Source: Woeseiaceae bacterium (lineage in GTDB: Bacteria > Pseudomonadota > Gammaproteobacteria > Steroidobacterales > Woeseiaceae). From it: 64,000 nucleotides of DNA. The DNA is taken from positions 20,151-84,150 of the forward strand of contig JAJFKV010000044.1 of NCBI GenBank assembly GCA_021773055.1, written 5' to 3'. How positions within the stretch are numbered: the first letter of the stretch is position 1; each line of letters begins with the position of its first letter. Below, piece after piece: positions 9,992 through 31,425 of this stretch. Position numbers and translations under genes: made by a program. The notes beneath the pieces were generated by a model. That model was not told where the DNA came from. It worked only from the letters and a program-made list of their open reading frames with translations, and did no database searches.

Positions 9992-10003
9992 GCGTGCTTC
10001 CTG

Positions 10004-16000: not shown

Positions 16001-16711
16001 GTTTCTGCCGCCGTCCTCAAACACACGGAACACATCGGCTGGCTTGACACTTTCCCAGGTAGGCAATGGAAACAAGCCGGCGATGACGCCGTGTTGTTTC
16101 GCCACTTCGGGGTCGAGGTCGGACCCCGTAATTTTGGCGGGTTCGCCGTCTGCCGTATAGCCTTCACCGAGTATGTAGTTCTTGAACGGCAGTATGCCGT
16201 TATTGTATGCGGCACCACCCCAGAGCATGACGCCAGTTGCCATCATGCTGCGAATATTCGCATCGATAATTTTCTGATGGCATGCGCCGCAGGCCGTTTC
16301 AGCCACCCGATAGTCGGATGGATTGACGAAGCGGATGAACTCGGAGCTTTCGTGGTTGAGGAGCGTGTACGAGCGTTCCGGGTTGGCGCTTGACGGGAAA
16401 TGCCAGGTCTCCGGATAAAGCGGACTAACGTGCGCGCGATCAAGCGCAGATTCGTCATCCTTCTCGATCGTCGAGTCGCCGCCGTGACAATCGGTGCAAC
16501 CGAGCACCACAGACGGACTGTCATGCATGCTGCTGGCGTCGGTGGACGTGTGACAGCTTACGCAGCCGAAGCTTTTGAGCGCGGCCATTTGCTGTGACTG
16601 TCCTTCAGGCGCGGGCGGGTAGACAGGATATTCAACGTGCTGCGGTGCCTCGCCCTCCGAGGCCATCAGCATGAGCGGCAGTAGCAACAATAACGATGTC
16701 AGTTTCTTCAT
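13046..16711 (-). CDS. 1221-aa secreted decahaem c-type cytochrome fused to a C-terminal LVIVD-repeat beta-propeller
   Basis: Signal peptide MKKLTSLLLLLPLMLMASEG. There are ten CXXCH motifs in the first ~770 aa (CVSCH, CTDCH, CGACH, CASCH, CMVCH, CVDCH, CKDCH, CYTCH, CAGCH, CSNCH). The C-terminal ~400 aa carries six LVIVD-like repeats (GLQVYDIAN, GLILVDVTT, GLIIVNVNR, GLRVVDVTN, GLAVIDVWN, GLKIVQLTS). Confidence 0.85.
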   Translation of the reverse strand: MKKLTSLLLLLPLMLMASEGEAPQHVEYPVYPPAPEGQSQQMAALKSFGCVSCHTSTDASSMHDSPSVVLGCTDCHGGDSTIEKDDESALDRAHVSPLYPETWHFPSSANPERSYTLLNHESSEFIRFVNPSDYRVAETACGACHQKIIDANIRSMMATGVMLWGGAAYNNGILPFKNYILGEGYTADGEPAKITGSDLDPEVAKQHGVIAGLFPLPTWESVKPADVFRVFEDGGRNLTNLFPETGLPNTLGQIQRLEEPGKPDTRQSNRGPGTGGRIAVPLINIHKTRLNDPFTWFMGTNDQPGDYRSSGCASCHVVYANDRDERHSGPYAAFGRDGESTSLDPTIPKGESGHPLRHEFSRAIPTSQCMVCHMHQPNMFMNSYLGYTMWDYESDAPFMWPEEQQNLSIAEQREVQDRNPEGAVIRGKWADIDFLRNVTDLNPELNDTQFADYHGHGWNFRAIQKRDLRGNLLDADGNIVANDDPDKFDKAVHMSSIHVDKGMHCVDCHFTQDNHGNGHIYGEVASAVEVECKDCHGTAQSYPDLRTSGPAAPPGGTDMRLYRNENGKRRFEWQGDKLIQRSILDPDVEWALSLVKDSVNPEHAEYNEKAARAKLMSDDVQSQDWGLGVATEDLAHQNEEIECYTCHTSWITSCAGCHLPIEANWKTESHHYDGGESRNFATYNPQVARDQMFMLGRRGPLNDSKIAPVRSSSALVLSSTNANREHIYVQQAPVAASGFSSQAMNPHFPHTTRKTETKTCSNCHLSAAGDNNAWMAQLLLFGTNFVNFVGFNAWAGLEDGILGTQVTEWDEPQAVIGSYLHRYAYPDNFQQHLDDGSVLQTAATHSGGPARCVQVRGEYLYSAEGEKGLQVYDIANIANKGFSQRIVELPFSKMGHDSDVNSKYATCVALPTNQPIHPPRNTGDLMRIDNQEQAFHPIYDYAFVTDSTEGLILVDVTTFSDGDLNNNFIERALTWNPGGVLAGARHITIGGHYLYIVADRGLIIVNVNRPMIPYITAIVPLDNGRASALQFRYLFVTDDSGLRVVDVTNPDAPRMSGAHVPIDDAERIYVARTYAYVAARSQGLAVIDVWNPEEPKLIEFFNANGRIRDSRDVVVGSTNASLYAYVADGFDGLKIVQLTSPSSQPNFYGFSPLPKPELIASYPTQSPVLSLSKGLDRDRGVDETGGQIAVFGRKGSRPLTHEEMQKLYLDAEGNPWYVEDE

Positions 16712-18501
16712 CAGTACGCCAGAATCAGGTTTGCGAGTACGGAGTAGGCCGTGTCCGAGCCGAAAAGTTGTTTATAGCCATCGGCCGGGACGAGCGCGGA
16801 ACCCGCTACACGCAGAATAACGTTCTGCGATATCAGCGGCCGATAGGTAATCGCGAGCGACAGGTCCTGACCAATACTCTTGTCAATGTTGCCCTGATTG
16901 CGGGCGACTTCGAGTACTGCCGTATCGTCGAACCACAGCTGGTTTGCATTTATGGACGCGCGAATCTTCGGTGTGATTTCCATATCGACACCCACACCCG
17001 CCAGCAACAGCCCCGGGTTTGTGAAATTCGATTGCCCGTGCGCCTTGCTTGAACGCAACGAATTGAGCAGGCCGTTCTGTGACGAGAGCGTGACCCGGCC
17101 GCCACCGAGCAACGGCACCGCCTGACGAATCCAGAAACTAGTGTCGGCACCGGCGATCAGCGGATTCTCAAAAATCGCGTCGAAGCCCGTGGACTTGTCA
17201 TCATAGGGATCGTCATCTCCACTGCCATAGATGAGCGTTGCCCGGAGACGTAACCAGTCGAAATCTCGCGAGACCTCGACGGCTGCAAATGCGGCGCTGA
17301 TATCGCTCTCAAGGCCGGTAAATGTTGCGGGCTTTTCTGTGCCAAACGCGTAGTAAGCCGAAGCTGTCAGGTTCCAGCGACCGATGTGACCGTCGCCGTT
17401 ATAACCGACATATGTGACCTCATACTCGCGATTTCTCTGCACGCCGATAGCGGCAGGTCGAGCGAGAAATCCATTTGCGTCTACGAAAGGATCATCAATT
17501 TCGGAATTACGGTTGTGAACCAGCGCGATCTGTGAGGTGAAACCCAGTATCGGAAAGTCCTGTCGATAGAGATTAAAAAGTAATACGTCGTCCTCACGGA
17601 GGTCGGCGGAAATGTCGTTCAGTCCGCTGTTCGAGTCTTTCTCAAGACGGCGGAATACACCGATGTTGTATTGCCAGCGATTGTTGTTCCGCGTGCCGAA
17701 CAAGCGGATGCCCACCGGGCTGTCTTGAAACAGGAAACCCCGAAAGTCGGCCGTTATCGGCTGTATTCCGATCCTCAGACTATCGAAGTCAAAGCGATCG
17801 GAGACGTTGCGCAAATGCTTGTCGAGAAACAAGCCCTGGATGCCGACAAAGTTGTCACTTCGAGTTGTGCCCGCGGTTGGGTCGGCTCGCAAGATACCGG
17901 CTTCGCCGACTTCGACGCGTGTGAAATTAAGAACTGGCAGAATACGCAGCTCATAGTCAGGCGGCCTGAATATGGTCTCGCCTTTATAGAGCACCGCCTC
18001 AAGGAGGACGTTTTGAGTAAATGCTGTCTGATCGACGTCGCCAGGAACGTCGAGCTCACCCGGATCGGGTGATGTTGCGATCCCGACGGGTGTCGGCAGA
18101 CGGCGACCCTCAAAAGTCGAGTCCGAAATCAGATTGAAGGCGACAAACCAGTCGTTACCGAATGCGGGGCGATCACCTTTTAGAACGTTGTTGCCATGAT
18201 ACGGATCCCAAAGGCGCTCGGGATAACCGACAGCATTAACGATGCGCCAGCGATCCGGTATGGCTGCGAAATAGGGCAGGTCGCCCCAAACAGCTGGTGA
18301 AAGTCCGGGCTCATCACAGCGATGTGCTTCACGTGGCGGGTCACCAGGCCGGCGACGTAAGCGATCGAAATACTCGACGCAATCAGCACGTATGCCGGGA
18401 GCCTCCGCTTGCACAGCGTTTGACACGGACATCGCATAACACGCGACCAGTGTGGCAAGGCAAAGATGTCTATTTATTTTCACAGACATTCTGCTCGTCA
18501 C
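16711..18501 (-). CDS. Putative outer-membrane beta-barrel protein (family not recognised)
   Basis: About 590 aa with signal peptide (MSVKINRHLCLATLVACYAMSVSNAVQA-EAP). The sequence has alternating amphipathic, Gly/aromatic-rich segments throughout and a C-terminal ...SVLANLILAY ending in an aromatic residue. Its stop overlaps the next gene's ATG by 1 nt (TGATG). The start is 18501 or 18489. Confidence 0.6.
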   Translation of the reverse strand: MTSRMSVKINRHLCLATLVACYAMSVSNAVQAEAPGIRADCVEYFDRLRRRPGDPPREAHRCDEPGLSPAVWGDLPYFAAIPDRWRIVNAVGYPERLWDPYHGNNVLKGDRPAFGNDWFVAFNLISDSTFEGRRLPTPVGIATSPDPGELDVPGDVDQTAFTQNVLLEAVLYKGETIFRPPDYELRILPVLNFTRVEVGEAGILRADPTAGTTRSDNFVGIQGLFLDKHLRNVSDRFDFDSLRIGIQPITADFRGFLFQDSPVGIRLFGTRNNNRWQYNIGVFRRLEKDSNSGLNDISADLREDDVLLFNLYRQDFPILGFTSQIALVHNRNSEIDDPFVDANGFLARPAAIGVQRNREYEVTYVGYNGDGHIGRWNLTASAYYAFGTEKPATFTGLESDISAAFAAVEVSRDFDWLRLRATLIYGSGDDDPYDDKSTGFDAIFENPLIAGADTSFWIRQAVPLLGGGRVTLSSQNGLLNSLRSSKAHGQSNFTNPGLLLAGVGVDMEITPKIRASINANQLWFDDTAVLEVARNQGNIDKSIGQDLSLAITYRPLISQNVILRVAGSALVPADGYKQLFGSDTAYSVLANLILAY

Positions 18502-20443
18502 TGTTGATATAGGGAGTGGCAGGGCAATTCACATAGCGCAGGCGTGTTCCTTGCGGTACCAGCGTGTCCGCTCGCACTGCTGTCGCCGCATTGCTGAAAG
18601 TGCCGCCTTGTGCAGACTCATGTACGCCAAGGAACGCAATCATGTCGTCCTGATCGACGCCATCTCCGGAAACTCCGATGCCGCCAATGAGTTGTGAGCC
18701 ACGGTAGATCGGTACGCTGCCCGGAAAAATCTGGGTGCCGTTGGCAAGCGCCGGAATGACGCCTGCGGATACAAAGTTGTTGTCGAAGCCATCCACACCC
18801 GTGCAATTTGCAGGCACATCGGGGACCAGGCCCGCGACGAAGCCGACGTGTTGCACCAGCGCGTTATAAACGAGGTCCAGCTGCAGGCCGGTTGAAAAAG
18901 GACTCCATTGTCCGGCGGGTTTACTGAATGGACCCGGTGGATTGCCCGTCACGCCATCCGGGAAAAAAGGACGAGAGAGATTGCCACCCGCGCGGTCAGA
19001 AAACGCGATTGCGCCGTCGGTCAGTGCGTTGGGCAAGCCAAGGAAAGATTGTGCTGCGATGACGTACTGTGACAGTGGCTCTTTGCGTAGAAGAACAAGA
19101 CCGCCGTTTAAATAGGTCGCCGCCGGAACGCCATTTAGCGAGGCGGCCGCCGCGGCAGAAGAAAAGAAAGCCGCTGTTCGTGCTTTCTGCAGCGATACAT
19201 CCGTACCAAAAACCGGTGCATCTCGTGTTCTTACTATGCCGAGAATTACTCCGTTGGAGTCAACAACGGAAATCGTTACTCGGGCCTGGGTGCCACCGGG
19301 CTGGCGAATTTGTGCGCGTGAACGATTGGCCACCACCAAAGCCTGACTGAGGATGGCCTGAACTTCCGCTGCCGTTAAGGCCGAAGCGCCATCGGTGCCG
19401 GCGATCGGGCGATAGCGTTCAAGGTTGGCATTGTCGACAAGGACGAATGCGTCGAGACCGGCGTAATCGAGGGTGTCGGGACGAATGCCCGATGCGGGTT
19501 GTCCGAACGCTACGCCAGCGTTGGTTGTCGCCGCGACGTACCCGGGTACAGCGAGCAGCATTCCAGCGACGTTGTTGATGCTGGCAAATGTCGCTGCGCT
19601 GTTGGGGTCGGTAAGTAGCCCCGCTTGTGTTGCGTCTGAGAAGCGCAGGCTGCGACCGTCTACGGCGATGCGGTGAGCGCGTCGGTCATCAGGAGCCGCG
19701 AACCCGGATGCGGCAGCCAGTGCGATGAATTCATCGTTATCCTGGTCGAGGTCGGAAATATCGGGATCAAAGGAGTACAGCGCATCACTGATGACGCCAA
19801 CACCGCCGACGGGAGTGCCACCTTTATATAAAGGAAAGCCGCCAGAATCTGCGGCCAGGCCCAGTGGTGACCGGTGCGGGCCGGCGTCCGGCACGCCGCC
19901 CGCGTAGCGAGTTATGAGGTCGGAGCAGGCCAGCTGACTGAATTGCACACCGAATAACGGGCCAGCCGGCTGCAAATTATCTTGCGGATTGAAATGGTCC
20001 TGCACGATCTGGCTGGCAGTTCGTGTGCTGAACGCATTGCCTTCGGTCGAGAGGTAGGCCGCGGTTACGGCTTTGGAAATAGCGGCCATGCTGCCGGGAA
20101 TTATATTCACGCCTTCGAGGCCACCGTCTATGTTTCCGCCCGGTGATGTGATCGTTATGGCCACCGCAGCTGCGTTCATCTGAAAAACGGCGAGCACATT
20201 ACCCACACGATCAACAACAGCAATGGTACCGTCGACGTTGCGCGCTTGCGCTTCGCTGACCGCACGAGCTATGACGCTTTCGACATCTACAACACTCAGT
20301 TGCGTCGGTGTGTTCGCACAGAATCCATCGCAGCCGACTGCCGGCGTACTAACGTCAACATCTGTAGATTGCGGCCGGGAGCCACCACCGCATGCAGTGA
20401 TGAGCAGCAGAGCTGCGATCAAAAGTGGTGTGCGATGAATCAC
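18470..20443 (-). CDS. Lipoprotein with two GlcG/HbpS-like (DUF336, haem-binding/degrading fold) regions
   Basis: Lipobox LLITAC-GGG. GlcG-like segments are VESVIARAVSEAQARNVDGTIAVVDRVGNVLAVFQM, VTISVVDSNGVILGIVRTRDAPVFGTDVSLQKARTAAFF and PIYRGSQLIGGIGVSGDGVDQDDMIA. The GTG start forms a 4-nt overlap with the upstream stop. Confidence 0.65.
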   Translation of the reverse strand: MIHRTPLLIAALLLITACGGGSRPQSTDVDVSTPAVGCDGFCANTPTQLSVVDVESVIARAVSEAQARNVDGTIAVVDRVGNVLAVFQMNAAAVAITITSPGGNIDGGLEGVNIIPGSMAAISKAVTAAYLSTEGNAFSTRTASQIVQDHFNPQDNLQPAGPLFGVQFSQLACSDLITRYAGGVPDAGPHRSPLGLAADSGGFPLYKGGTPVGGVGVISDALYSFDPDISDLDQDNDEFIALAAASGFAAPDDRRAHRIAVDGRSLRFSDATQAGLLTDPNSAATFASINNVAGMLLAVPGYVAATTNAGVAFGQPASGIRPDTLDYAGLDAFVLVDNANLERYRPIAGTDGASALTAAEVQAILSQALVVANRSRAQIRQPGGTQARVTISVVDSNGVILGIVRTRDAPVFGTDVSLQKARTAAFFSSAAAAASLNGVPAATYLNGGLVLLRKEPLSQYVIAAQSFLGLPNALTDGAIAFSDRAGGNLSRPFFPDGVTGNPPGPFSKPAGQWSPFSTGLQLDLVYNALVQHVGFVAGLVPDVPANCTGVDGFDNNFVSAGVIPALANGTQIFPGSVPIYRGSQLIGGIGVSGDGVDQDDMIAFLGVHESAQGGTFSNAATAVRADTLVPQGTRLRYVNCPATPYINSDEQNVCENK

Positions 20444-22044
20444 GGATATGAGTCCTTCGCCTCAAAGTGGAAACCGTGGCACATGACGCAAGTGCTCGAA
20501 ATTTGAGTTGCTGAATTACGTCCGGACTCACCGCTGCCATGGCAATCACGACACACGCTGATGCCCGGTATCAATAGATCAGTGGCAACTTCCGACTGCG
20601 TCGCAAAGTGGCAGCTATCGCAGCCGCTCACATCAGTATCGTGGGAGGCGTGCGAGAAAACCGCGTGCGGGAAAAATATTTCCGTCAGTTGTACCGGATC
20701 AATGTGCCAGGGAACGTCACCCTCGGTGTTCGTCACCGTGTGGCAATTGATACAAGCTCGCCTCTCAAACAGGTCCTCTGCGACATTTAAAGCTTCGGTG
20801 CGTGCCTCTGCCGCCACGCGGTCCCGGTCCGCCCGCGAGAGCCTTCTTCCCGGCCGTCGTACGCGTTGATCGACTACATCGGGATCTGCGCCTAACAGGC
20901 GTGCGCTGTAATACTCGATCAATGCCTGCACGACGGCATCAGCATCACCGTGTGGGACTGTGCGTGTCGGTTCATCCGGGTCAAATGCCAGGGTATGGCA
21001 GTCGCTGCAGTGTTTATCCATCGAGATCGCCTGCATGCGCGCGCCGCCGGGATCCGGCGTATGACATTCAGCGCACTCAATGACGCGCATGCCGTCGGGC
21101 GTGATGATGCCATTTGGGTCCAGGTGAATCAGGTGATTGAAATTTAGGTTCGATACATCGGCATGTGTGGCTGATGTCAGTTCAAGCTGATCGATCAACC
21201 ATTCCGTTTCGCCGTCAGGAGACTCTGTCGGTCGCTTGAGACTGACTTCGAAATTCGGATGGTCATCGAGAAAATCTGCCGCGTTTTGCAGTTCCACACC
21301 GCTTGGCAGGTTTGCGTGACAATCAGCACACAGATCCTGATGCTGGTTAACCAGTTGCGGTGGTTCGTTGTGCTCGAGGTGGCACAACGCGCAGCGCGTC
21401 TCCCCAAGTACTGCATGTTGACGTTCCGTTGCGTGGCGTTGCACGGCGTGGCATTCGACACAGGCATCATCCGGCACGCGCTTGAACAATGTGGTGTGGC
21501 AGCTGCCGCAGTCGCTTGCGATCGACGCATGCGCGCTATTCACCGGCCCGGCCAGTAAGAAATCGTGCATGACTAATGCTGGCATGGCGAAGCCGAGAAG
21601 CAGCACGACCGCGACGAGTGTCCATGCAATCTTGCGTTTGCTCCAGCCACCAATTCCGCTTGTTGGTGTACTCCACCGGGATATCAGGTGCTCGTCGTCG
21701 GCGTCTTCGCGGAGCTCAAAGCTAATTGCGAAGTTGAAGCCGTCGGGAGGGTCGATGACGCGAATGACGTTCGCACCAACCTCAATTACATCACCTGCAC
21801 TTAGCCTGGTGCTACGTTGTGATTTTCCGTTGACAGTAACGCCTGCCATCGCGTTCGTAGTGATGTGGATCGCCCCGTCTTTCGGTTCAATCACGGCGTG
21901 TTGTAATCGCGCCCGGCGATCTTTCAGGTGCAATACCTGGTCTGTGGAGCGGCCAATCGTGATCGCCGGTGCATCGACGGGGTGGTCATGCTGTTCAACG
22001 CCACCGGCTGCATTTCTTGTGATGAATCGAATCAGATAGGCCAT
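20440..22044 (-). CDS. FHA domain - single TM - periplasmic decahaem c-type cytochrome
   Basis: N-terminal FHA-like region (ITIGRSTDQVLHLKDRRARLQHAVIEPKDGAIHITTNAMAGVTVNGKS...GDVIEVGANVIRV) followed by the TM helix WTLVAVVLLLGFAMPALV. Ten CXXCH motifs follow (CGSCH, CVECH, CALCH, CADCH, CAECH, CSDCH, CINCH, CDSCH, CRDCH, CVMCH). Confidence 0.85.
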   Translation of the reverse strand: MAYLIRFITRNAAGGVEQHDHPVDAPAITIGRSTDQVLHLKDRRARLQHAVIEPKDGAIHITTNAMAGVTVNGKSQRSTRLSAGDVIEVGANVIRVIDPPDGFNFAISFELREDADDEHLISRWSTPTSGIGGWSKRKIAWTLVAVVLLLGFAMPALVMHDFLLAGPVNSAHASIASDCGSCHTTLFKRVPDDACVECHAVQRHATERQHAVLGETRCALCHLEHNEPPQLVNQHQDLCADCHANLPSGVELQNAADFLDDHPNFEVSLKRPTESPDGETEWLIDQLELTSATHADVSNLNFNHLIHLDPNGIITPDGMRVIECAECHTPDPGGARMQAISMDKHCSDCHTLAFDPDEPTRTVPHGDADAVVQALIEYYSARLLGADPDVVDQRVRRPGRRLSRADRDRVAAEARTEALNVAEDLFERRACINCHTVTNTEGDVPWHIDPVQLTEIFFPHAVFSHASHDTDVSGCDSCHFATQSEVATDLLIPGISVCRDCHGSGESGRNSATQISSTCVMCHGFHFEAKDSYP

Positions 22045-22048
22045 ATCG

Positions 22049-22918
22049 TCACCAGTACAGGAACACGGTTAGGATATGCGCAATCAGGGCCATAAGCAGA
22101 GCGGCCGTCAACGGGACATGGGCATAAAGCCAGATCTCAATGCCAGCCTGTAATTTCAGGTCTGCGCCGACCTGTCGCAAGAGTTTGCGCTTGTTGCGAA
22201 GCAGGGCGGACAACTCCGCGATCGTCGCGGCAGAATTCGCATCAGCACGCGATTGTTGCTCGGCGAGCCAGTCCATCGCAGCTTCCTGACCCGGGTTTAG
22301 AATGGTTTCCGCCTGATTCGGTATCTGAATACGGGACCGGTCTTCGTTACGCAATCGCTGCCACAAGGTACTGCCCAGCTCAGTACGCTGAATGCCACTG
22401 GTAACGAAGTCCTGATACTCATTTGGCAGATTTTCAGCAACCCGGCGGCTGCGCCGGTCAATGTCATCCAGCTGGTCGAGCAGCTCTGAACGACTCGAGC
22501 CATCACGATTTTCACTAAGCCGTTCCGGATACTTCAAATAGATGAAAACACCGTACATGCCGCTGACGATGACCAGTGTCATGAGCGCGAAAGCCAGCGT
22601 GTGAATATTCCATCCGACCTGGAACCCGGCATGCAGAAGAACGATGACAAACAACGCGATGCCGAAATAGACGTGCGCCGACAGCCAGCCCTGCAAGGTT
22701 CCCGCGGTCGAGCTGTAGCGTCGCTTTCGCACGCCAAACCACGTTAACCAGACAATCATTAACGCTCCGAATGTTCCCAGCGTGTAGCCAAGTACTGTGC
22801 CACCGTTGGGAGGCTCCTGTGGGTCATGAATCCAGTAGGCAAGCAGACAAACAATAGTCAGTGCCGTCGCCGCCCAAAGATAGCGGTACCTCCTGAAGAC
22901 GAGTATCGATTCGTGCAT
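22049..22918 (-). CDS. Integral membrane protein (4 TM + ~130-aa soluble insert + 1 TM) with two H-x13-H helices; putative di-haem b-type electron carrier
   Basis: TM3 is SAHVYFGIALFVIVLLHAGF and TM5 is YAHVPLTAALLMALIAHILTV, each with two His separated by exactly 13 residues. No other family motif was recognised. Confidence 0.55.
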   Translation of the reverse strand: MHESILVFRRYRYLWAATALTIVCLLAYWIHDPQEPPNGGTVLGYTLGTFGALMIVWLTWFGVRKRRYSSTAGTLQGWLSAHVYFGIALFVIVLLHAGFQVGWNIHTLAFALMTLVIVSGMYGVFIYLKYPERLSENRDGSSRSELLDQLDDIDRRSRRVAENLPNEYQDFVTSGIQRTELGSTLWQRLRNEDRSRIQIPNQAETILNPGQEAAMDWLAEQQSRADANSAATIAELSALLRNKRKLLRQVGADLKLQAGIEIWLYAHVPLTAALLMALIAHILTVFLYW

Positions 22919-22919
22919 C

Positions 22920-25301
22920 TCAGCTCGCCTTCTTGGTTAGATTGACGAACTCGGCAGGGCTCATTCGCAATGCCGCGCCGGTAGGGCACGCTCGTACGCA
23001 GGCCGGCCCGCCAGAAAGGTCTTTGCACATGTCGCATTTGACGGCTTTCTTGATGGCCGTCTTGCTGGCATCGGGACTACCTATGGCCTGACGTTCACCG
23101 GGCGCGGCGCCTTTGCCCGTCAGCAGCCAGTTCAACAGGCTCGGTGCCGCTTCTTTTTCGCTCGCCATTTGGATAACGCCATACGGGCAGTTGCGCTCGC
23201 AATTACCACAACCGATGCAACTGTCTTCAATATAAACTTCGCCATTGGGGGCGCGACGGATGGCGTCGGGCGGGCAGTCCTTCATGCAATGCGGATCTTC
23301 GCAGTGACGACACGAGGTCGGTACGTGAACCTGTGCATAGGACGGCCCGGCAGCGCGGTCGAGTCGTGATGTGCCGCCGTGGGTCTCCGCACAGGCTTTC
23401 TCGCAATTGTCGCAACCGACACACAAGGACTCGTCAATCAGCAGCACATCAGTTGCTTCACCCAGACCTTGTTGCATCAGGAATGAAATCAGGTCACCCG
23501 CATCCGGAGCGGCCTCCATGCGCAGGTTCTCACTGATGCGCTCTTTCACTTTTGTCTGGATGCGTTCACGCAGCCCGGTGTTGCGCAGCAGCATGGTCTG
23601 AAAAACGTCGGCGCGCAGGAAGACCGACTCTGTTGCCACAGTCGCCGTGACGGTCGCCGATCGACGCGTTTCTCCAACCAGGCCCATCTCGCCGACGTAG
23701 TTGCCCGCTGCCACGTAAGTCGTGACGATGTCGCGGCCACCGATATGGCGCGACACTGAAACCGAACCATTGCGTATCAGGTGCAATCCGTCTGCCTCAT
23801 CACCTTCTTTGAAGAGAACGTCATTAGCTCGAAATGAAATAAGCTCTGCCGTTGCAGCGACGGCTTCGAGCTCGCCCAGGGGTGAGTCCGGTACGAGATC
23901 AGCCTGCAAAGTGCGCACGATAAAGTGCTGATCGATGACCTGCCGCACCGGTTCGTAGCTGTTCATCAGCTTGATCATTTCGCGGCGCGGTGTTTCCAGT
24001 AACACGCAGTCCGCTGATGCACGCACAGTCGCTGAACGCCTGCGACCCGACAGTAAACTCATTTCGCCGAAGAACTGACCCTGACCCAGGCCGATAAACT
24101 GGCCATCATCCGTTTCGACCTCCACTTCGCCTTCGACGATGGATATGAACGAGTTGGTGTAATCATTCTTGTGGAAAATAACGTCGGCGCGCTTCGGCGT
24201 GAGCAATTCACTCGCGAGAACAAGTTCACGCAACACGAGACCATTAACGTTTTCAAACAGCGATACGTTGCCGCGAATCAACGCCAGTGTGTCATCGACA
24301 CCCTTGCCATACGGCAAGTGCCGGAACTTATCTTCGAGTATGCCGTGATCGGCCGGCAAAATATCGTTGCCCTTAATGAACTCAACGACTTCGTAGCCCT
24401 GGTTCATCGCCTGTTTGATAAGGGGGTAGCCCCCCAGTGCACCGATGACATACAGACCGGGCACATTGGATTCATAATGACCTGAAAGCTCGGGCAAGGT
24501 TGTTGGCTCATCACTCGGAAAAGTAATGCCAGTGGATTCCACGAAGCGACGCGGTGGGATGGCACCAACACGAGCGATCACGCGGTCGCACTCAACACGA
24601 GTCTCACCGGTCTCAGTGTTCAGGTTGATGGCTTTCGAGACTTCGATCGATGCGACACCTGTGTTGAAAAAACAGCTGATCGAACCATCTTCAATGGCGC
24701 GGGTAATCAGCGTCAGGTTGCCTTCTTTCGCGCGCGCAAACTCATCCCGGCGATTAACGATGACAACGGCGTTATTGCGCGCCAGCGCCACAGCATTTTC
24801 GATAGCCGCATCGCCAGCACCAACGATGGCGATAGTTTCATTCTTGTATTCATCGGGGTCGTCCAGCGTGTATTGCACACTTGAGTCACTCTCCCCGTCG
24901 ACGCCCATCTTGCGTGGATTACCCTGCAACCCTATGGAAAGAACGATTGTTTCCGCCTGTAAGGTTTCACCGTCGGCAAGTTGCAGTTCGAATTCAGGTC
25001 TGGAGCCCGTAATGGCGGTTACTTCCGCGTTGTAACGAATATTGACCTCAAGATCGTCGAGTCCGGATTGCCAGCTGCTGAGAATCGCCTCGCGCGTGCC
25101 TGCCGCAAATCCAAGATCACTTCGCAGTGGCACGACAGACGGTTCGGCCATGACGTGCTTGCCTTTCTGGTAGCGCTGGATCGTATTGGCGGGCGCGGCG
25201 CTGCTTTCCAGCAGCAGGTATTTCAGCCCGAGCACTTGCGCGCGTGCAGCCGCACTTAATCCCGCCGGCCCCGCACCGACGATGACGAGCTCAAGACTCA
25301 C
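22920..25301 (-). CDS. Cytoplasmic FAD/NAD(P)-dependent oxidoreductase (thioredoxin-reductase-like) fused to two cyclic-nucleotide-binding domains and a 4x[4Fe-4S]-motif ferredoxin domain
   Basis: Dinucleotide folds LVIVGAGPAGLSAA and IAIVGAGDAAIENA. cNMP phosphate-binding cassettes FGEMSLLSGRRRSATVRA and VGEMGLVGETRRSATVTA. Cys clusters CVGCDNCEKAC, CRHCEDPHCMKDCP, CIGCGNCERNCP and CDMCKDLSGGPACVRACP. There is no signal peptide and the start is GTG. Confidence 0.85.
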   Translation of the reverse strand: MSLELVIVGAGPAGLSAAARAQVLGLKYLLLESSAAPANTIQRYQKGKHVMAEPSVVPLRSDLGFAAGTREAILSSWQSGLDDLEVNIRYNAEVTAITGSRPEFELQLADGETLQAETIVLSIGLQGNPRKMGVDGESDSSVQYTLDDPDEYKNETIAIVGAGDAAIENAVALARNNAVVIVNRRDEFARAKEGNLTLITRAIEDGSISCFFNTGVASIEVSKAINLNTETGETRVECDRVIARVGAIPPRRFVESTGITFPSDEPTTLPELSGHYESNVPGLYVIGALGGYPLIKQAMNQGYEVVEFIKGNDILPADHGILEDKFRHLPYGKGVDDTLALIRGNVSLFENVNGLVLRELVLASELLTPKRADVIFHKNDYTNSFISIVEGEVEVETDDGQFIGLGQGQFFGEMSLLSGRRRSATVRASADCVLLETPRREMIKLMNSYEPVRQVIDQHFIVRTLQADLVPDSPLGELEAVAATAELISFRANDVLFKEGDEADGLHLIRNGSVSVSRHIGGRDIVTTYVAAGNYVGEMGLVGETRRSATVTATVATESVFLRADVFQTMLLRNTGLRERIQTKVKERISENLRMEAAPDAGDLISFLMQQGLGEATDVLLIDESLCVGCDNCEKACAETHGGTSRLDRAAGPSYAQVHVPTSCRHCEDPHCMKDCPPDAIRRAPNGEVYIEDSCIGCGNCERNCPYGVIQMASEKEAAPSLLNWLLTGKGAAPGERQAIGSPDASKTAIKKAVKCDMCKDLSGGPACVRACPTGAALRMSPAEFVNLTKKAS

Positions 25302-26932
25302 GGATTGCCGAATGCGGCTGCGCCGGAAACTGTTGTTCCGCTTTGCGGGTCCTGCAGGCTGTAGGTCATACCAACGCCCGCAGGAATCGCAGGATCCGAA
25401 GTGTCGCCGGGCTCACTGAAGAAACCGGAGAAAGTACCACTGCCACCCGTGGCCCCACCCACCACGACCGCGTTGTAGAAGCCTTCGAACAAGTGGGCCG
25501 GCAAGCCGATCTCCATTCCCATATCGCCGTTGCCTGAAGCGCTCCACGTTACACCGCCGATATCGATGACCAGTGTGCTGCTCACAGCAAGGTTGGTGAA
25601 GTCGGCCAGGAACGTTGCGCTGCCGAGTACGCCAGTATTACCCCGGTTGTCTGTCGGTGATGTTGCACCGATTAGTGAGTAGGAGGCTGTGCCTGTGATC
25701 GGCATGACCGGTGGCGCCTCTGCCGCACTGCTAATCCAGTGCAGGCTTTGACTGCCGAGGTCTTGGCTGACGTCGCTGCCATCACTAAGCAGCGTGCCGC
25801 TGGCAACCCCACCCGACCAACGCCCCCAACGCAACACGGTCATGGTATCGAAGCCCGTATCGGTATTGGTTGAGGTGCCGATGTTCCATGCCGCTGGCTC
25901 GCTGGCTACTCTGCCGGGGTATGGGCCGATAAAGCCTTCGAGATTGTTGCCGCCATCAAGTTGCAGCGACGCAGGATCATTAACTTGCATACCGCTGAAG
26001 GCTGTTCCAATAGCACCGAGCGGACCGGTTGAGTAACTAATCGTACGACCGGCCGTTGCTCGCGGTGATTCACCCGGCGTGATGTCGATCGGCGTGCCGT
26101 CCGGATCGATACCGATCACGGGTTGTCGCGGCGTTTCCGGATTAGCGCTGTCCTTCGGATCGGTTTCCTGAGAGTCCGGAGCACCCGAAGCCGGGTTGCG
26201 ACGAAGACCAAGTTTGTCGTCAAAGCCAGCCCTTACCGGTGTGCCATTGGCATCGAAGCGCAAGTCGTTGTCATCGATCAATACGGAAGGCGGTGCGTCG
26301 AGCCTTTCGGGAACGCGCGACGCCATCGGAATGAAGGCGTATTCGCCAGCGCGAACCACTATCTCACCACCCGGGGCGCGAAATACTATTACTCCTGCTG
26401 TTACTCCGATGTATAAACCGTCTTCAATGGGCTCGCCCGGATTCACATTAGGCGCCCAGTCGCAGTCACCACTACAAAGTAATATCGCGAAATTGGTGCC
26501 GCGAATACCGAGCGTCCCAACTGGTGTGCGGACCTCGTAGTTCGCACGGTTTTCCTCTCCAATGGCACCCGTGATGGTGCGTAAGCCGCCCTTCACCAGC
26601 GAGATGACGCTCTTGTCCTGTGATGTTTCAACAATCGTTGGCGACGCAGCCGCGTAAACATATTCGTCGATGCGTATTTCACTGTTTGGCCGAACAGCGA
26701 TTTTCGCACCATCGATCATCAGCAGTTGCGCACGAGATGCATCACCGGTGCTAATCGTATCGGTAGCCAGGACACCGTCGCCTTTCGCCAGTGCGACCAC
26801 GGCGTCACGCTGTGCGGTGACAGAACCTTTGCTGAATAACACCGAGCCGGCATCGTCAGCGCTCGCCTCAGCAACGAAAAAAAGTGCAACTACAAGCGAT
26901 GCCTGTGTGCATACTTTGAAAGAATTAATCAT
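25298..26932 (-). CDS. Secreted FecR-domain protein with a C-terminal TbpB/Slam-cargo-like 8-stranded barrel domain
   Basis: Signal peptide MINSFKVCTQASLVVALFFVAEASA with no lipobox. FecR-like region KGSVTAQRDAVVALAKGDGVLATDTISTGDASRAQLLMIDGAKIAVRPNSEIRIDEY. The C-terminus (MPITGTASYSLIGAT...GSATFLADFTNLAVSSTLVI...GSGTFSGFFSEPG...VGMTYSL...VSGAAAFGN) follows the TbpB-handle/HpuA/hemophilin barrel pattern. ATG 26932 forms ATGA with the upstream stop; GTG 26944 is an alternative start. Confidence 0.65.
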   Translation of the reverse strand: MINSFKVCTQASLVVALFFVAEASADDAGSVLFSKGSVTAQRDAVVALAKGDGVLATDTISTGDASRAQLLMIDGAKIAVRPNSEIRIDEYVYAAASPTIVETSQDKSVISLVKGGLRTITGAIGEENRANYEVRTPVGTLGIRGTNFAILLCSGDCDWAPNVNPGEPIEDGLYIGVTAGVIVFRAPGGEIVVRAGEYAFIPMASRVPERLDAPPSVLIDDNDLRFDANGTPVRAGFDDKLGLRRNPASGAPDSQETDPKDSANPETPRQPVIGIDPDGTPIDITPGESPRATAGRTISYSTGPLGAIGTAFSGMQVNDPASLQLDGGNNLEGFIGPYPGRVASEPAAWNIGTSTNTDTGFDTMTVLRWGRWSGGVASGTLLSDGSDVSQDLGSQSLHWISSAAEAPPVMPITGTASYSLIGATSPTDNRGNTGVLGSATFLADFTNLAVSSTLVIDIGGVTWSASGNGDMGMEIGLPAHLFEGFYNAVVVGGATGGSGTFSGFFSEPGDTSDPAIPAGVGMTYSLQDPQSGTTVSGAAAFGNP

Positions 26933-28278
26933 TGCGGCACCCACTGTAGCTGGAGACCGACTTCCGTGCGGTCATAGTCATAAAGTGCAATATTTGAATC
27001 GTTGTCTATGTAGCGAATTCTCGGCGTTAATGACAAACCGTCAGACCAGACATCGCTGAAGGTTACCTGCAATAGTGTTGAGACTTGTGTGTCCTCTCGT
27101 GATGTTCCGAAAAAGACACCGTCGTAGTCACTGGTCAGGCTACCTGCTGAGGCGAATAACTGTCCTTTGTTGCCAACCGCCATGTGCAGCGTGAGACGCC
27201 CGCCAATTTTCGAATTACCGTACGGAGAGCCGCTGTTACGTTCAGAGTCGTTGCCACCGATCACCTCAAAGCCGAGCTTGCCGGGAGATTCGAATTGATA
27301 GGTCAGGCCGCCGCTGTAAAGAATACGATCAACATCGAGCGTATCGATCAGGTCATCGTGTCGAATGGCACCACCGCGAAGGCTGAGCGTGATATCCCAG
27401 TTAGAAGCGATTCGACTTCCAAGTAATGCATCCAGTCCGAGATAGCTCTGATTCGGGTCTCCATCGCGTGTGGCCCAGTAACCATCGGCACCGGCCCGCC
27501 CAAAAAATGGGCCGCGCTGCCAGGTCACCCCGGTATTGCCGCTCAGGACACCAGAATCGACGAAACTGGCGTCCGGGTTGTGCCGGTAGCTGGCGCGGCC
27601 ACCGGTATACCAGCCAAATTGCGTGCTTTTCGGGTTATTCCAGTTAAAGCTGGCGCCGGCCTCGACGAACGATGTTTCAGTCTGCAGATTGTCCGGGCTG
27701 AGGATGAAGCCCATGAACTGCTGGTCGTCGGTCGAGCCGTTGGCGTTGTCATCGTAACCACCGGCCACATCGAACGAAAAGCGGAGACTACTCTTGGGAG
27801 GTGATGGTGTTGCGTCGATGGATGCAATGTAATCACTAATAATCGTGCGTACAGGCGCTGATGGCCCCTCATCCAGCAAACGTATGAACAACGGACGTGC
27901 CAGTGCTGCATTGCCGCTGTCGAAGTATGCGCGGGCGAGTTCCATTCGGGCCCCTGAAAATTCAGGGGAAACGGCCAGCGACCGGCGCAGGCTGAATATC
28001 GCATCACTGTGGTGTCCGGAATCCAGCGCGGCAACACCGAGGAGGTAGTCGAAATACGGATTACCGGCCAGTTCTACTTCACGCGTACTCAACAGGGTAA
28101 ATGCCGCGCCACTTTGGCCTGTGGCCAGCAACGACTCCGCATCTTGAAGAAACTGCCGTTGTTCAGCGCTGGCAGCGATTCGAAATGTGTCCTGAGCGAT
28201 GACCTCGGTTGTGAATACACAAAACCACACGGTGAGCGCCAGGATAGATACTTTCTTGATATTCGGTACGGGTAGCAT
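26929..28278 (-). CDS. TPR + C-terminal beta-barrel outer-membrane protein, Slam/DUF560 (type 11 secretion)-like
   Basis: Signal peptide MLPVPNIKKVSILALTVWFCVFTTEVIAQ. TPR-like N-terminal ~170 aa (GNPYFDYLLGVAALDSGHHSDAIFSLRRSLAVSPEFSGARMELARAYFDSGN) followed by a ~280-aa barrel-like region ending ...DSNIALYDYDRTEVGLQLQWVPQ. The size and architecture match Slam proteins. Confidence 0.6.
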   Translation of the reverse strand: MLPVPNIKKVSILALTVWFCVFTTEVIAQDTFRIAASAEQRQFLQDAESLLATGQSGAAFTLLSTREVELAGNPYFDYLLGVAALDSGHHSDAIFSLRRSLAVSPEFSGARMELARAYFDSGNAALARPLFIRLLDEGPSAPVRTIISDYIASIDATPSPPKSSLRFSFDVAGGYDDNANGSTDDQQFMGFILSPDNLQTETSFVEAGASFNWNNPKSTQFGWYTGGRASYRHNPDASFVDSGVLSGNTGVTWQRGPFFGRAGADGYWATRDGDPNQSYLGLDALLGSRIASNWDITLSLRGGAIRHDDLIDTLDVDRILYSGGLTYQFESPGKLGFEVIGGNDSERNSGSPYGNSKIGGRLTLHMAVGNKGQLFASAGSLTSDYDGVFFGTSREDTQVSTLLQVTFSDVWSDGLSLTPRIRYIDNDSNIALYDYDRTEVGLQLQWVPQ

Positions 28279-28325
28279 TTTTTTTATTTTCCCGCGATCC
28301 AAATCTTGAGCAGTGCTGTGCGGTA

Positions 28326-30467
28326 TTACTTGCTCAGGTGGTCGAAAACCCCATCCCAATCCGCCGGCGGTGGCTCTTGTTTGAACCGCTCTATCCGATC
28401 AAGGTACGCATTATATAGAAGCTCGCCCTTCTGTTCTGTCAATTTTTCGAACAACTGGCGTGAGATTTCCCAATCACAGCGCCGATACCCTGCCAGCGCT
28501 TTTTCATAATCTGCCAGCGTCGAAAGTTCTTTTTCGTCGAGCGTCCTTGTCTCACCTATTGGTTCGAATATTGCGACCGGTTTCGTCTTTCCTTTAACGC
28601 GAACGAGATCTAGCTCTCTAAACGTAAATTCAGGGATATCTGCCACGGTGCCTTCATTGACGATGATGTCGACACCGTATTGTTTGGTGAGCCCCTCAAG
28701 CCGCGAACCAAGGTTCACCGTATCGCCCATAACCGTATAGGCAATACGAAACTCTGAACCCATGTTGCCGACATTCATGTCGCCACTTGCGATGCCAACG
28801 CCAACACGAATGGGTGGCCAGCCTTTTGCTGCGAATGCCTCATCCAGTGATTCGACAGCTTGCAACATGCCGAACGCGGCGAGCAGGGCGTGCCTTGCGT
28901 GGTTTTCGTCCTGCAGCGGGGCGCCCCAAAACGCCATTACACAATCACCCATATACTTATCGATGGTGCCGCGGTGTTCTTGTATGACGCGAGTAAACGG
29001 CGTTAGAAACTCGTTCATCATTTGCGTCAGCTCACGTGCATCCAGCCCTTCCGAGATCGTAGTAAACCCTCGAACGTCCGAGAACAGTACCGACATTACC
29101 CGTGTTTCGCCTTCCAGAGACACTTCGGCGCCGCTGGCGTCGATTTCTTCTACAACGCCGGGTGGAATGTACTGACCAAAGATTTGTGACAAGTGCCGTT
29201 TGTTTCTTTGCTCGACAAAAAAACCATACGTGATTTGCAGTAACCCGGCGACCAGCGTGAATCCAATGATCGATGCGATTGGAATGACGAGATTGAATGA
29301 TGTCCAAAGCCAAAGGTTAGTTGTCATCGTCAGCGCAAGTATCGCCGCGACCATCAATAGTGATGACTGCGGTGAAAGTTTTGGCAACAATAGCGCAACG
29401 AGTGCGCCGATCAGGAATAACAAAGTGAACTCAAGGCCATTCGACCAGGCAGGTTGCCGGCGGATAGTTCCGTCGAGCAAACCCGCGACGAGATTCGCGT
29501 GCACCTCGACACCTATGTACCGCTGACCAACAGGGGTCGAGCGCAAGTCGAGCAGACCGGCTGCGCTTGCCCCGACCAGTACGATCTTGTCAGCCAGCCA
29601 TTCACGGGGTGCCGTCTTGTTGACGATGTCGCGAGCTGGAATGAAGCGGAAGCTTTCCTGCGGGCCGCGGAAGGGAATGAAAACAGCGGCTTGTTCGTTG
29701 ACGGGTATTTCTTTATCACCGATGCGGAACGACTCAAGATCGATTCCGCGTCGTTCGCTGCCGGCAAATTTGAAGCCAACAGGTGGCGCACCCATAGCCG
29801 AATGCGTTAGCGCCAGCGCCAGCGCCGGATAAAGGTCACCCCGGTAGCGTTGCACTAGTGGCGTGCGCCGGAATACCCCGTCGGAGTCAATTAATGGCGA
29901 GTCGAAAAAACCGCCACCAGATGCATTTTCCTGCAGCGCTTGCAGGCTGCCGGCATAGCCGGCCGCTGTGACAAAGGGCACGGAGATATCGGTGAGATCT
30001 GCGGCAGGAATGAATGCTGTGGGTAGTACGCCTGTGAATTCAGGTTCGTTTTGGCTGAGTGAGTCTTTGAATACGAAGCCTGTGACAATATTGCGGGCGA
30101 TAAACGACTCCGCAAAGGTTTCATTGCCACCGCCACGACCTGCTTCGGCGAACAATACATCAAAGCCCAACACATTGACGCCATAGTCATCAAACAGAAT
30201 ATCGAGAATGCCGGCGAGCGTTTCCCGTTCCCAGGGCCATTGCCCCAATTGCACCTGGCTGGCCTCGTCGATATCGACGATGACAATGCGATCATCGATA
30301 CCGCCCGGCATCGTAGTACGAACGCGTACGTCGTAAAGGTAGTTCTCCATGCGGTCGATCGCCTCGAACCGCGGCTTGCCGGCAACGTGCATAGAAAAAA
30401 TGATGAGCACGACCGTACTTATCAGGAGGCGTATCAGCAGTCGGGCCGTGCGAGTGGCGAGAGGCAT
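28326..30467 (-). CDS. CHASE2 sensor domain - TM region - class III adenylate/guanylate cyclase
   Basis: N-terminal TM plus a periplasmic CHASE2-like region (IVIVDIDEASQVQLGQWPWERETLAGILD), three further TM helices, then the cyclase core VLFSDVRGFTTISE, KYMGDCVMAFWGAP and YTVMGDTVNLGSRLE. Confidence 0.88.
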   Translation of the reverse strand: MPLATRTARLLIRLLISTVVLIIFSMHVAGKPRFEAIDRMENYLYDVRVRTTMPGGIDDRIVIVDIDEASQVQLGQWPWERETLAGILDILFDDYGVNVLGFDVLFAEAGRGGGNETFAESFIARNIVTGFVFKDSLSQNEPEFTGVLPTAFIPAADLTDISVPFVTAAGYAGSLQALQENASGGGFFDSPLIDSDGVFRRTPLVQRYRGDLYPALALALTHSAMGAPPVGFKFAGSERRGIDLESFRIGDKEIPVNEQAAVFIPFRGPQESFRFIPARDIVNKTAPREWLADKIVLVGASAAGLLDLRSTPVGQRYIGVEVHANLVAGLLDGTIRRQPAWSNGLEFTLLFLIGALVALLLPKLSPQSSLLMVAAILALTMTTNLWLWTSFNLVIPIASIIGFTLVAGLLQITYGFFVEQRNKRHLSQIFGQYIPPGVVEEIDASGAEVSLEGETRVMSVLFSDVRGFTTISEGLDARELTQMMNEFLTPFTRVIQEHRGTIDKYMGDCVMAFWGAPLQDENHARHALLAAFGMLQAVESLDEAFAAKGWPPIRVGVGIASGDMNVGNMGSEFRIAYTVMGDTVNLGSRLEGLTKQYGVDIIVNEGTVADIPEFTFRELDLVRVKGKTKPVAIFEPIGETRTLDEKELSTLADYEKALAGYRRCDWEISRQLFEKLTEQKGELLYNAYLDRIERFKQEPPPADWDGVFDHLSK

Positions 30468-30696: not shown

Positions 30697-31197
30697 ATGT
30701 CAAAGTTGATGACCAGAGAAACGAGCGCGTGCTTTGGGATACTTTTCGGCATAGGTCTTTTGTTCGTCGCGACATCGCTCCGTGCTGACGATGGAAATTG
30801 TGATGAGTTGCGTCGTTGTAGTCTGATCGAAGATTCAGCGGCGCGCCTGGCCTGCTACGACACCCAAAGTGGCCGGCAGCAATCAGGACCGATAGCGCCT
30901 GATAACGATCTTGAGTCGGCGACAAATGGCTCGCTCGATGACCTGGGGTCGGAGTCGGTAGAACGGGAAAAGGGTGAGGCGCCAACGCGACGGGCGACAG
31001 TAACGCGCTGCCGCAAGGACGGAAACGACAAGTATCACTTCTATTTTAAAAATGGACAGGTCTGGAAGCAAACCGACCGAAAGCGACTGAAGTACAAAGT
31101 CTGTGAGTTCGAAACTACAATCAGCAAGGATTTCTTCGGATACAAAATGAAACCCGATGGCGGTACAAGCCGTATTCGAATCACGCGCGTGAAATAG
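30697..31197 (+). CDS. Small secreted Cys-containing protein of unknown function (paralog of 43680-44177)
   Basis: Signal peptide (FGILFGIGLLFVATSLRADD), conserved Cys positions and the C-terminal block RC.KD...KY.FY...GQVWKQ...L.....C.F...I.KDFFGYKM shared with the second copy. Confidence 0.7.
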   Translation: MSKLMTRETSACFGILFGIGLLFVATSLRADDGNCDELRRCSLIEDSAARLACYDTQSGRQQSGPIAPDNDLESATNGSLDDLGSESVEREKGEAPTRRATVTRCRKDGNDKYHFYFKNGQVWKQTDRKRLKYKVCEFETTISKDFFGYKMKPDGGTSRIRITRVK

Positions 31198-31398: not shown

Positions 31399-31425
31399 TC
31401 ATTTTTCAATCAAGGGGATATTGCC

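Follow-up and report, generated by a model that had tools for sequence, protein, structure and literature searches.

Cyclic nucleotide monophosphate (cNMP)-binding iron-sulfur (FeS) proteins have been described in gene clusters of two kinds that also encode a transmembrane (TM) protein and a multihaem cytochrome anchored in the inner membrane; genes for a tetrahaem cytochrome and a porin are close by. One of these is the ptdABCDEFG operon, which is transcribed in Alphaproteobacteria of oxygen-deficient zones, whose TM protein was termed "ferric reductase-like", and whose function was stated to be completely unknown (10.1101/2023.11.21.568154). The other comes from Ferrigenium straubiae, in which an FHA-bearing nonahaem cytochrome ("NHC") is encoded beside a 5-TM protein and a [4Fe-4S] protein; its function was likewise stated to be unknown, with the suggestion that electrons flow inward through the NHC cluster to the quinone pool (10.64898/2026.01.22.701106). 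Here we analyze a 64,000-nucleotide stretch of contig JAJFKV010000044.1 from a Woeseiaceae bacterium (the window), which carries the same gene triad, here lettered D, E and F, within a longer run of genes lettered A to J, and we focus on gene D, the apparent counterpart of ptdE. Genes D, E and F, together with the tetrahaem cytochrome J and the putative porin H, match the published context of PtdE, the likeness being one to PtdE as described; the supplements of the ptd preprint yielded neither its sequence nor an accession. In the ptd operon an FAD/NAD(P) oxidoreductase, PtdC, is listed as a protein of its own, together with a pentahaem PtdA; the present locus instead has an HbpS-like lipoprotein and a decahaem/LVIVD protein. 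Furthermore, a fused flavoprotein of the thioredoxin reductase (TrxR) fold, a cluster count of four and not two, conserved cNMP contacts and a link to a cyclase are all absent from the ptd and NHC descriptions. Full-length orthologs of D are present in marine alphaproteobacterial loci (L077 and L059). We found no follow-up papers on ptd, and the Woeseiaceae comparative-genomics paper does not mention the cluster.

Based on the domain anatomy of D, its conservation and its gene neighborhood, we propose, with about as much confidence as doubt, that D is the cytoplasmic entry subunit of a conserved transmembrane, and probably trans-envelope, electron conduit, in which it would act as an NAD(P)H-oxidizing donor regulated by cyclic AMP (cAMP) and feeding an outward flow. 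The gene is read from the minus strand with a GTG start codon, and the plus-strand frame over 22920-25301 is interrupted by many stops. An earlier note on this DNA, made from the sequence alone, had described a 793-aa open reading frame with two dinucleotide-binding folds and two cNMP cassettes. All of these motifs were recovered in the minus-strand translation, namely GAGPAG (aa 9-14), GAGDAA (aa 161-166), FGEMSLLSGRRRSATVRA (aa 411-428) and VGEMGLVGETRRSATVTA (aa 536-553), and the Pfam matches are far above chance: Pyr_redox_3 at aa 6-287 (E 1.8e-33), Pyr_redox_2 at aa 5-302 (E 7.9e-28), cNMP_binding in two stretches (E 3.5e-39) and several Fer4 models at ~aa 620-780 (E 1e-12 to 1e-9). The absence of an export signal also held, as neither a TM or hydrophobic segment nor a signal peptide was found in D; since the polypeptide, besides having no such segment, opens directly with the Rossmann strand VIVGAGPAG, we place the protein in the cytoplasm. 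Conservation was read from 80 D orthologs in GTDB genomes of Alpha-, Beta- and Gammaproteobacteria (54-78% identity), to which the counts of D orthologs below refer. An AlphaFold2 (AF2) model built from 94 homologs (mean pLDDT 72.6, pTM 0.63) is confident for aa 1-600, and a Foldseek search with it matched only the N-terminal TrxR fold, returning no multidomain analog.

In this N-terminal domain the FAD loop GxGPxG and the NAD(P)H site GAGDAxxENA...N183-R184-x-x-E187-F188-x-R190-x-K192 are essentially invariant among the orthologs. The first ~320 residues of the model match YpdA/Bdr best (7a7b, E 1e-23, TMt 0.82), alongside ferredoxin:NADP+ reductases of the TrxR type (3ab1, 3lzw, 6gar and 5ygq, E 1e-19 to 1e-22), and the best NCBIfam matches are to YpdA (TIGR04018, 130.3 bits against a cut-off of 339.9) and TrxR (TIGR01292, 75.5 bits against 343.45). 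The stretch from aa 100 to aa 200 is free of Cys, and the CxxC is missing from the NADPH domain; the only cysteines outside the FeS module (210, 238 and 432) are neither invariant nor paired, and the position of the YpdA catalytic Cys (aa 13 of D) holds Gly, Ala or Ser in 78 of the 80 orthologs. We could therefore reject a low-Mr thioredoxin-disulfide reductase, on the score below cut-off and the missing CxxC, as well as a YpdA/Bdr bacillithiol-disulfide reductase, on its score and the residues at aa 13, although the latter fold is still the closest. As the redox cysteines are absent, D is not a disulfide reductase, and the prior description of it as thioredoxin-reductase-like stands for the fold and the FAD/NAD(P)H motifs but not for the enzyme. 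D does combine the features of TrxR-type ferredoxin:NADP+ reductases, that is, a TrxR fold, an FAD GxGxxG, an NADPH motif of the GxGxxA...(H/N)RRxxFxR type and no CxxC. By exclusion and fold, we propose that its flavoprotein works like one of these enzymes. Its nucleotide substrate is probably NAD(P)H, with NADPH favored by the likeness of the Arg-rich motif to the site at which TrxRs bind the 2'-phosphate. In one marine alphaproteobacterial ortholog (L077:2169-4571) the FAD loop is GSGPCG, its Cys standing where YpdA has the catalytic one.

The two cNMP-binding domains that follow were modeled as beta-barrels, each with a short helix in its phosphate-binding cassette (PBC), at a pLDDT of ~70-90, and the pair can be aligned without a break to CNB-A/B of PKG and of the PKA regulatory subunit from yeast. 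Domain A carries F410-F411-G412-E413 and G419-R420-R421-R422-[S/T]-A, invariant or nearly so, and the cassette of domain B reads G537-E538-M539...R547-[S/T]-A549, with A549 retained in 79 of 80 orthologs; G412, E413 and R422 in the one and G537, E538 and R547 in the other are invariant. Both cassettes thus display the Gly-Glu, the Arg-[Ser/Thr]-Ala and the beta-barrel of ligand-competent PF00027 domains. True cNMP binders are recognized by an invariant Gly-Glu with Arg-[ST]-Ala, which sets them apart from the domains of the CooA, FNR and CprK type. Earlier called complete, the cassettes are canonical, with contacts that are invariant in both domains under strong purifying selection, and this anatomy fits functional nucleotide sensors.

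The C-terminal module has four groups of cysteines, C627/630/633/637, C664/667/672/676, C695/698/701/705 and C756/759/768/772, all 16 of which are invariant in 80 of 80 orthologs. Their spacing (Cx2Cx2Cx3C; Cx2Cx4Cx3CP; Cx2Cx2Cx3CP; Cx2CxnCx3CP) is that of four-cluster ferredoxins; the four 4Fe-4S motifs predicted earlier are thus all present, with the correction that the fourth is Cx2Cx8Cx3CP and not x7. The likening of this module to DmsB and NrfC, in contrast, had to be abandoned. D scores 60.7 with DmsB (cut-off 214) and 45.4 with NrfC (cut-off 378), Pfam gives no NrfD match in the partner protein E, and an exported DmsB/NrfC identity is ruled out by these scores, by the lack of a signal peptide and by the fusion of the module to the C-terminal side of NAD(P)H and cNMP domains that are themselves cytoplasmic. 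The closest relatives are instead the cytoplasmic four-cluster ferredoxins of the HycB/HydN/AegA type, DmsB and NrfC standing further off, with the best PDB match to FHL HycB (7z0s_B, E 1.8e-20, aa 620-789) and the next curated relative being the N-terminus of AegA (E 2.7e-19).

We then examined the gene neighborhood of D (Table 1). The genes at 13046-30467 form a tight array on the minus strand, in which the stop codon of the upstream FecR-domain gene C overlaps the start of D as GTGA, while the TGA stop of D is followed by one base (G) and then the ATG of gene E, a packing that indicates translational coupling of the array genes. A scan of the operon for promoters and terminators gave counts no higher than the shuffle expectation. 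Within the window D sits, as had been noted, between two arms, the cyclase arm with its CHASE2 class III enzyme (28326-30467, separated from D by two genes) and the membrane/cytochrome arm (13046-22918). Across genomes this placement holds on the cytochrome side but not on the other, as no more than 9 of the 61 loci with enough upstream sequence have a same-strand cyclase within ~4 kb upstream of D. The downstream genes code for a membrane protein and multihaem cytochromes, in keeping with the name given to that arm, and are conserved beside D in ~50-60 of the 80 species, with E directly downstream of D in ~60 of 80 loci. The order D-E-F-G-H-I is kept across Gamma- and Alphaproteobacteria, and relatives in Burkholderiales and Usitatibacter show the order F-G-H-I-J-D, with J directly preceding D.

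The product of E belongs to a large family that is labeled hypothetical everywhere and has no Pfam domain above cut-off. It carries invariant His82/His96 in TM3 and His267/His281 in TM5, both pairs spaced i/i+14 (43-61 sequences) and both falling in predicted TM helices (75-97 and ~258-288), which is the pattern of a dihaem protein with two His pairs; His106 is also invariant. The positive-inside loop R64-K65-R66 fixes the orientation of the protein, such that one His of each pair comes to lie near each membrane face. We accordingly infer that E is a dihaem b transmembrane electron carrier with two stacked b haems, and it may represent a new dihaem membrane protein family. A family-level match to ferric-reductase-domain or cytochrome b561-type proteins was not obtained by Pfam, PDB sequence or fold, and "ferric-reductase-like" is used here as an analogy; the nearest approach to a known family is a sub-threshold Ni_hydr_CYTB score (17.5 bits against 30.1). 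Gene F codes for a protein with a TM helix at aa 139-157 and ten CxxCH motifs, which are present in 52 of 52 orthologs. In its FHA domain only G31-R32 is invariant among orthologs, and no Ser/Thr kinase was seen in the operon.

On the upstream side, the cyclase A has a complete catalytic set, as the designation of a cyclase arm implied, with the metal-binding D464 and D508, the substrate-specifying K504 and T578 (the latter in place of an Asp), the transition-state N584 and R588, and R554, as in class IIIb adenylyl cyclases. It aligns with Pseudomonas aeruginosa CyaB (3r5g; KfvGD / YTiiG..VN..SR) and differs from the guanylyl cyclase Cya2 (E / G). Given the Lys504/Thr578 pair and this best alignment with CyaB, the local messenger is most likely cAMP. 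Genes A, B and C are syntenic together in 7-8 related loci, and the order A-B-C-D recurs in Woeseiaceae, Steroidobacteraceae and related metagenome-assembled genomes (MAGs); B and C may form a surface-sensing module with the CHASE2 cyclase. Elsewhere a GAF-GAF-PAS-cyclase (L011) or a cyclase-AAA-TPR protein (L064, directly upstream) stands upstream of D, or, in L018, a divergent CHASE2 cyclase unaccompanied by B or C. The cyclase is therefore a lineage-specific add-on outside the conserved core, and at the same time the recruitment of different cyclase architectures beside D supports a functional link between cNMP and D.

Relatives of the fused D architecture are encoded by at least 598 GTDB species. 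Clustering at 90% identity leaves more than 6,000 groups with E <= 1e-10, and clustering at 50% identity leaves 963 with E <= 1e-30; the only database name for these proteins is "cyclic nucleotide-binding domain-containing protein". The nearest, at 85-91% identity, are from Woeseiaceae MAGs, and full-length proteins of ~790-830 aa persist down to ~35% identity. The carriers are mostly heterotrophic Lysobacterales, Alcanivorax, Cognaticolwellia, Woeseiaceae and similar organisms, and among cultured strains they include Cognaticolwellia sediminilitoris KCTC 52213, Alcanivorax sp. 1008, Pseudomarimonas arenosa CAU 1598, Oceanibacterium hippocampi CECT 7691 and Tahibacter amnicola. Variant architectures include split relatives of 460-511 aa with only the two cNMP domains and the FeS module (P0368, P0372, P0378 and P0381), in which the cNMP domains keep company with the FeS module; an FeS plus Pyr_redox protein without cNMP domains (P0373); deep relatives with one detectable cNMP domain, such as P0291; and a distant relative of 1134 aa (P0254), in which two FHA domains are fused N-terminally to a complete D-type protein.

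Taken together, the anatomy and context of D fit an NAD(P)H-fed electron-input module. In the scheme that we propose, NAD(P)H, probably NADPH, would reduce FAD in the TrxR-fold domain, as the motifs and fold suggest, and electrons would then traverse four [4Fe-4S] clusters, whose ligands are invariant and whose type and order are presumed. From the FeS module they would pass to the cytoplasmic-side haem of E, where, judging from His spacing and topology, two bis-His pairs may hold stacked b haems, and thence to the periplasmic decahaem of F and, if synteny is a guide, to G, H, I and J. Binding of cAMP, supplied in this organism by the adjacent CHASE2 class IIIb adenylyl cyclase, to the tandem PKA-R-like domains would alter the geometry of donor and acceptor or their docking, and could thereby switch the drain on NAD(P)H on or off; the scheme assigns no direction to this presumed gating. 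Because the cNMP domains lie between flavin and FeS in the sequence and stay with the FeS module in the split relatives, the simplest reading is that the nucleotide governs either the transfer of electrons from flavin to cluster or the way in which the FeS module docks. In addition, the fusion of FHA domains in P0254 suggests a contact between D and the cytoplasmic FHA domain of F. Net flow would be outward, from the cytoplasm to the periplasm or cell surface, bypassing the quinone pool by a logic like that of NADPH oxidases and ferric reductases; we favor this direction because it would be thermodynamically downhill, whereas inward flow would have to oppose the membrane potential. More speculatively, it is possible, if on balance doubtful, that the second messenger directly switches the entire electron wire. 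This would amount to NADPH-driven, quinone-independent electron export by way of FAD, four FeS clusters, a dihaem E of new fold, an FHA-anchored decahaem and an outer-membrane porin/cytochrome, with the surface sensed through the CHASE2 cyclase.

Several observations weigh against this proposal or parts of it. The FeS module of the model has a pLDDT <50, and neither the flavin-cluster distance nor an occlusion by the cNMP domains can be read from it. E matches no haem-protein family (by Pfam; best E 1.3 in a PDB profile search; best E 0.8 with Foldseek), such that the case for its haems is the His pattern. The remaining points concern the ligand. The PBC sequence does not decide between cAMP and cyclic GMP (cGMP), aligning equally well with the cGMP-binding PKG; 52 of the 61 loci have no nearby cyclase; and a simple cNMP site, whose canonical PBC carries a single Arg, does not account for the invariant Arg triplet G-R-R-R-[S/T]-A in the PBC of domain A (aa 420-422, nt 24036-24044, minus strand; 80/80). 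The extra Arg charges might bind a more anionic ligand or make an interdomain contact. These three points, along with the single cNMP domain of some deep relatives (P0291), are what speaks for a rival explanation, namely that the cNMP domains are structural or bind another ligand (cGMP or some other anionic nucleotide), that D is constitutive or otherwise regulated, and that the cyclase is there by coincidence or serves another receptor. We regard this as improbable, if still a real contender, because Gly-Glu and Arg-[ST]-Ala have been held invariant in both domains over a large divergence and because three unrelated cyclase architectures have been recruited beside D.

The conduit might also run in reverse, importing electrons from a donor in the periplasm or outside the cell, Fe(II) for instance, with D reducing NAD(P)+ to provide reductant. 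TrxR-type ferredoxin:NADP+ reductases are reversible, and a homologous triad is present and expressed in the Fe(II) oxidizer Ferrigenium straubiae (10.64898/2026.01.22.701106). However, such a flow would oppose the membrane potential, the step to NAD(P)+ (~-320 mV) from haems of the c type would be uphill, the 5-TM E has no evident module for proton coupling, and the organisms that carry D are largely heterotrophs, such that we think import unlikely. A slim chance likewise attaches to D being mainly a signaling protein, whose flavin and FeS clusters, instead of carrying the bulk of the electrons, would sense O2 or the redox state of the cell and in this way tune cAMP binding or FHA-mediated signaling to F: tandem cNMP domains are typical of regulatory subunits, and FHA is a signaling module found fused to a D-type protein in P0254, but a four-cluster wire with 16 of 16 ligands invariant, joined to an NAD(P)H/FAD domain and set beside a putative dihaem E and 24 c-haems (in F, I and J), has the anatomy of an electron chain. 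That D is simply a TrxR- or bacillithiol-disulfide-reductase-type enzyme with accessory domains might be read from its best family matches (YpdA at 130 bits, TrxR at 75 bits) and its best fold matches (YpdA/Bdr and TrxRs); we give this hardly any credence, as it is already refuted by scores far below the cut-offs of ~340 bits, the absence of a CxxC, the residues at aa 13 and the variability of Cys 210, 238 and 432.

Among the remaining genes of the operon, H has no match in Pfam or NCBIfam, and its C-terminus is Tyr or Phe in 49 of 50 orthologs, as in outer-membrane barrels. The ten CxxCH motifs of I are kept in 39 of 40 orthologs; the protein has no match among PDB sequences, and a 52-residue stretch of it matches ExtM, a cytochrome of the Geobacter selenite/tellurite operon. 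The LVIVD repeats of I also offered a lead to the Tenderiales "uet" cluster, which proved to involve an unrelated protein. Directly downstream of the operon, after a gap of ~560 nt, the minus strand at 4464-11149 codes for a Leu/Glu-type amino-acid dehydrogenase, the E1alpha, E1beta and E2 components of a branched-chain 2-oxoacid dehydrogenase, a DUF1611 protein and a member of the enolase superfamily. In loci L018, L019, L036 and L054 a Glu/Leu dehydrogenase is encoded upstream of D as well. Divergent from A, the plus strand at 30697-34545 codes for a 166-aa Cys-rich secreted protein without a family match and a 1049-aa TonB-dependent receptor with a Plug domain, and TonB-dependent receptors are likewise found upstream of D in the Cognaticolwellia locus L026, with an open reading frame of similar size in L020. 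The gene just upstream of D is in one locus an ApbC/Mrp-type FeS-cluster carrier (L080:713-1801) and in another a CcmH/CycH cytochrome c maturation protein (L055:1724-2992), neighbors in keeping with the many cofactors that the cluster would require.

Table 1. Genes of the operon and domains of the gene D product, with positions in the window
Feature	Coordinates	Strand	Basis
Gene A: CHASE2-sensor class IIIb adenylyl cyclase (predicted)	28326..30467	-	Pfam CHASE2 1.3e-51, Guanylate_cyc 1.8e-20
Gene B: TPR protein with possible Slam-like outer-membrane barrel	26929..28359	-	TPR_16/TPR_19; sub-threshold SlipAM match (E 0.00098)
Gene C: secreted FecR-domain protein, Gly/Thr-rich C-terminal half	25298..26944	-	PF04773 E 9e-11, signal-like N-terminus
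Gene D (PtdE-like): predicted cytoplasmic flavo-iron-sulfur protein with tandem cNMP-binding domains, 793 aa	22920..25301	-	Open reading frame and translation, Pfam, NCBIfam
D, TrxR-fold FAD/NAD(P)H domain, aa 1-312; GxGPxG, GAGDAxxENA, NRxxEFxRxK, without redox CxxC	24366..25301	-	Pyr_redox_3/2, Foldseek
D, cNMP-binding domain A, aa 335-468; PBC aa 411-428 (nt 24018-24071)	23898..24299	-	PF00027, AF2 beta-barrel and PBC helix
D, cNMP-binding domain B, aa 469-597; PBC aa 536-553 (nt 23643-23696)	23511..23897	-	PF00027, best stretch 488-574
D, four-cluster ferredoxin module, aa 620-789; 4 x Cys4 groups	22935..23444	-	Fer4_11, Fer4_7, other Fer4; HycB match
Gene E (PtdF-like): 289 aa, 5-TM, ~125-aa cytoplasmic helical insert, two invariant His pairs	22049..22918	-	Conservation, AF2 pLDDT 77
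Gene F (PtdG / Ferrigenium NHC-like): cytoplasmic FHA, one TM helix, periplasmic decahaem cytochrome c	20440..22044	-	Pfam FHA and cytochrome c models
Gene G: lipoprotein, LLITAC lipobox, HbpS/GlcG-like domains	18470..20443	-	PF03928 E 8e-20; syntenic in 53-55 loci
Gene H: 596-aa secreted protein, putative porin	16711..18501	-	C-terminal aromatic residue
Gene I: 1221-aa secreted decahaem cytochrome, LVIVD beta-propeller repeats	13046..16711	-	PF08309 E 7.8e-24
Gene J (PtdD-like): tetrahaem c554-like cytochrome, final gene of operon	11713..13188	-	PF13435; 4 CxxCH

If the proposal is correct, D would constitute a new cytoplasmic entry point to extracellular or periplasmic electron transfer, fed from NADPH and not from quinol, as well as a new class of cAMP effector, and E would define a new dihaem membrane protein family. 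The system as a whole would be a bacterial "NADPH oxidase-like" extracellular reductase with a post-translational switch, and its carriers among the Proteobacteria number hundreds of species, with the cosmopolitan Woeseiaceae of sediments among them. We know of no bacterial electron-transfer enzyme on which cAMP or cGMP acts directly as a gate, the known control of respiration by cAMP being transcriptional, via CRP; nor did the literature that we searched contain a report of a cNMP effect on a redox enzyme. NAD(P)H oxidation by D with and without cAMP would offer an assayable handle on an opaque cluster that is abundant in marine sediments.

Individually, the parts of D have precedents. With the TrxR-type ferredoxin:NADP+ reductases (Bacillus subtilis YumC, 3lzw; Chlorobaculum tepidum, 3ab1) and YpdA/Bdr (7a7b) it shares the two-Rossmann TrxR fold (Foldseek E 1e-19 to 1e-23), and the former also have no CxxC. 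It differs from those reductases in having its ferredoxin, a four-cluster one, fused in cis, with two cNMP domains between enzyme and ferredoxin, and from YpdA in lacking the catalytic Cys. Its FeS module has the same type of spacing of four Cys groups as HycB, HydN and the N-terminal domain of AegA and YgfT, the last two of which also couple this module to a pyridine-nucleotide flavoprotein. In D, however, the order is reversed, with the flavoprotein N-terminal, and split by the cNMP domains, and the partner is the 5-TM His-rich E in place of an NrfD/DmsC protein or a hydrogenase. The pair D-E resembles NADPH oxidases, ferric reductases and MsrQ-type proteins in its presumed logic, from NAD(P)H through a flavin and two bis-His haems to an acceptor outside. 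The domains of NADPH oxidases, like E, have His pairs spaced i/i+14 on two helices; E, however, is not a detectable member of these families (no Ferric_reduct Pfam match), and in the present system an FeS wire would stand between flavin and haems, with a decahaem cytochrome as acceptor. Fusions of cyclic nucleotide-binding (CNB) domains to effectors are also known from the acetyltransferase Mt-Pat and from the MloK1/SthK channels, and the PBCs of D resemble those of MloK1 and PKA-R. The fusion ATII-TrxR, which has been expressed (PMC6544261), likewise joins a CNB domain to a TrxR-fold flavoprotein, but with one N-terminal CNB domain, a true TrxR and no FeS module. Judged by its sequence, D thus appears to bring together components of known kinds, a TrxR-type ferredoxin:NADP+ reductase, a four-cluster ferredoxin and a CNB effector, within a cluster that had already been flagged as enigmatic.

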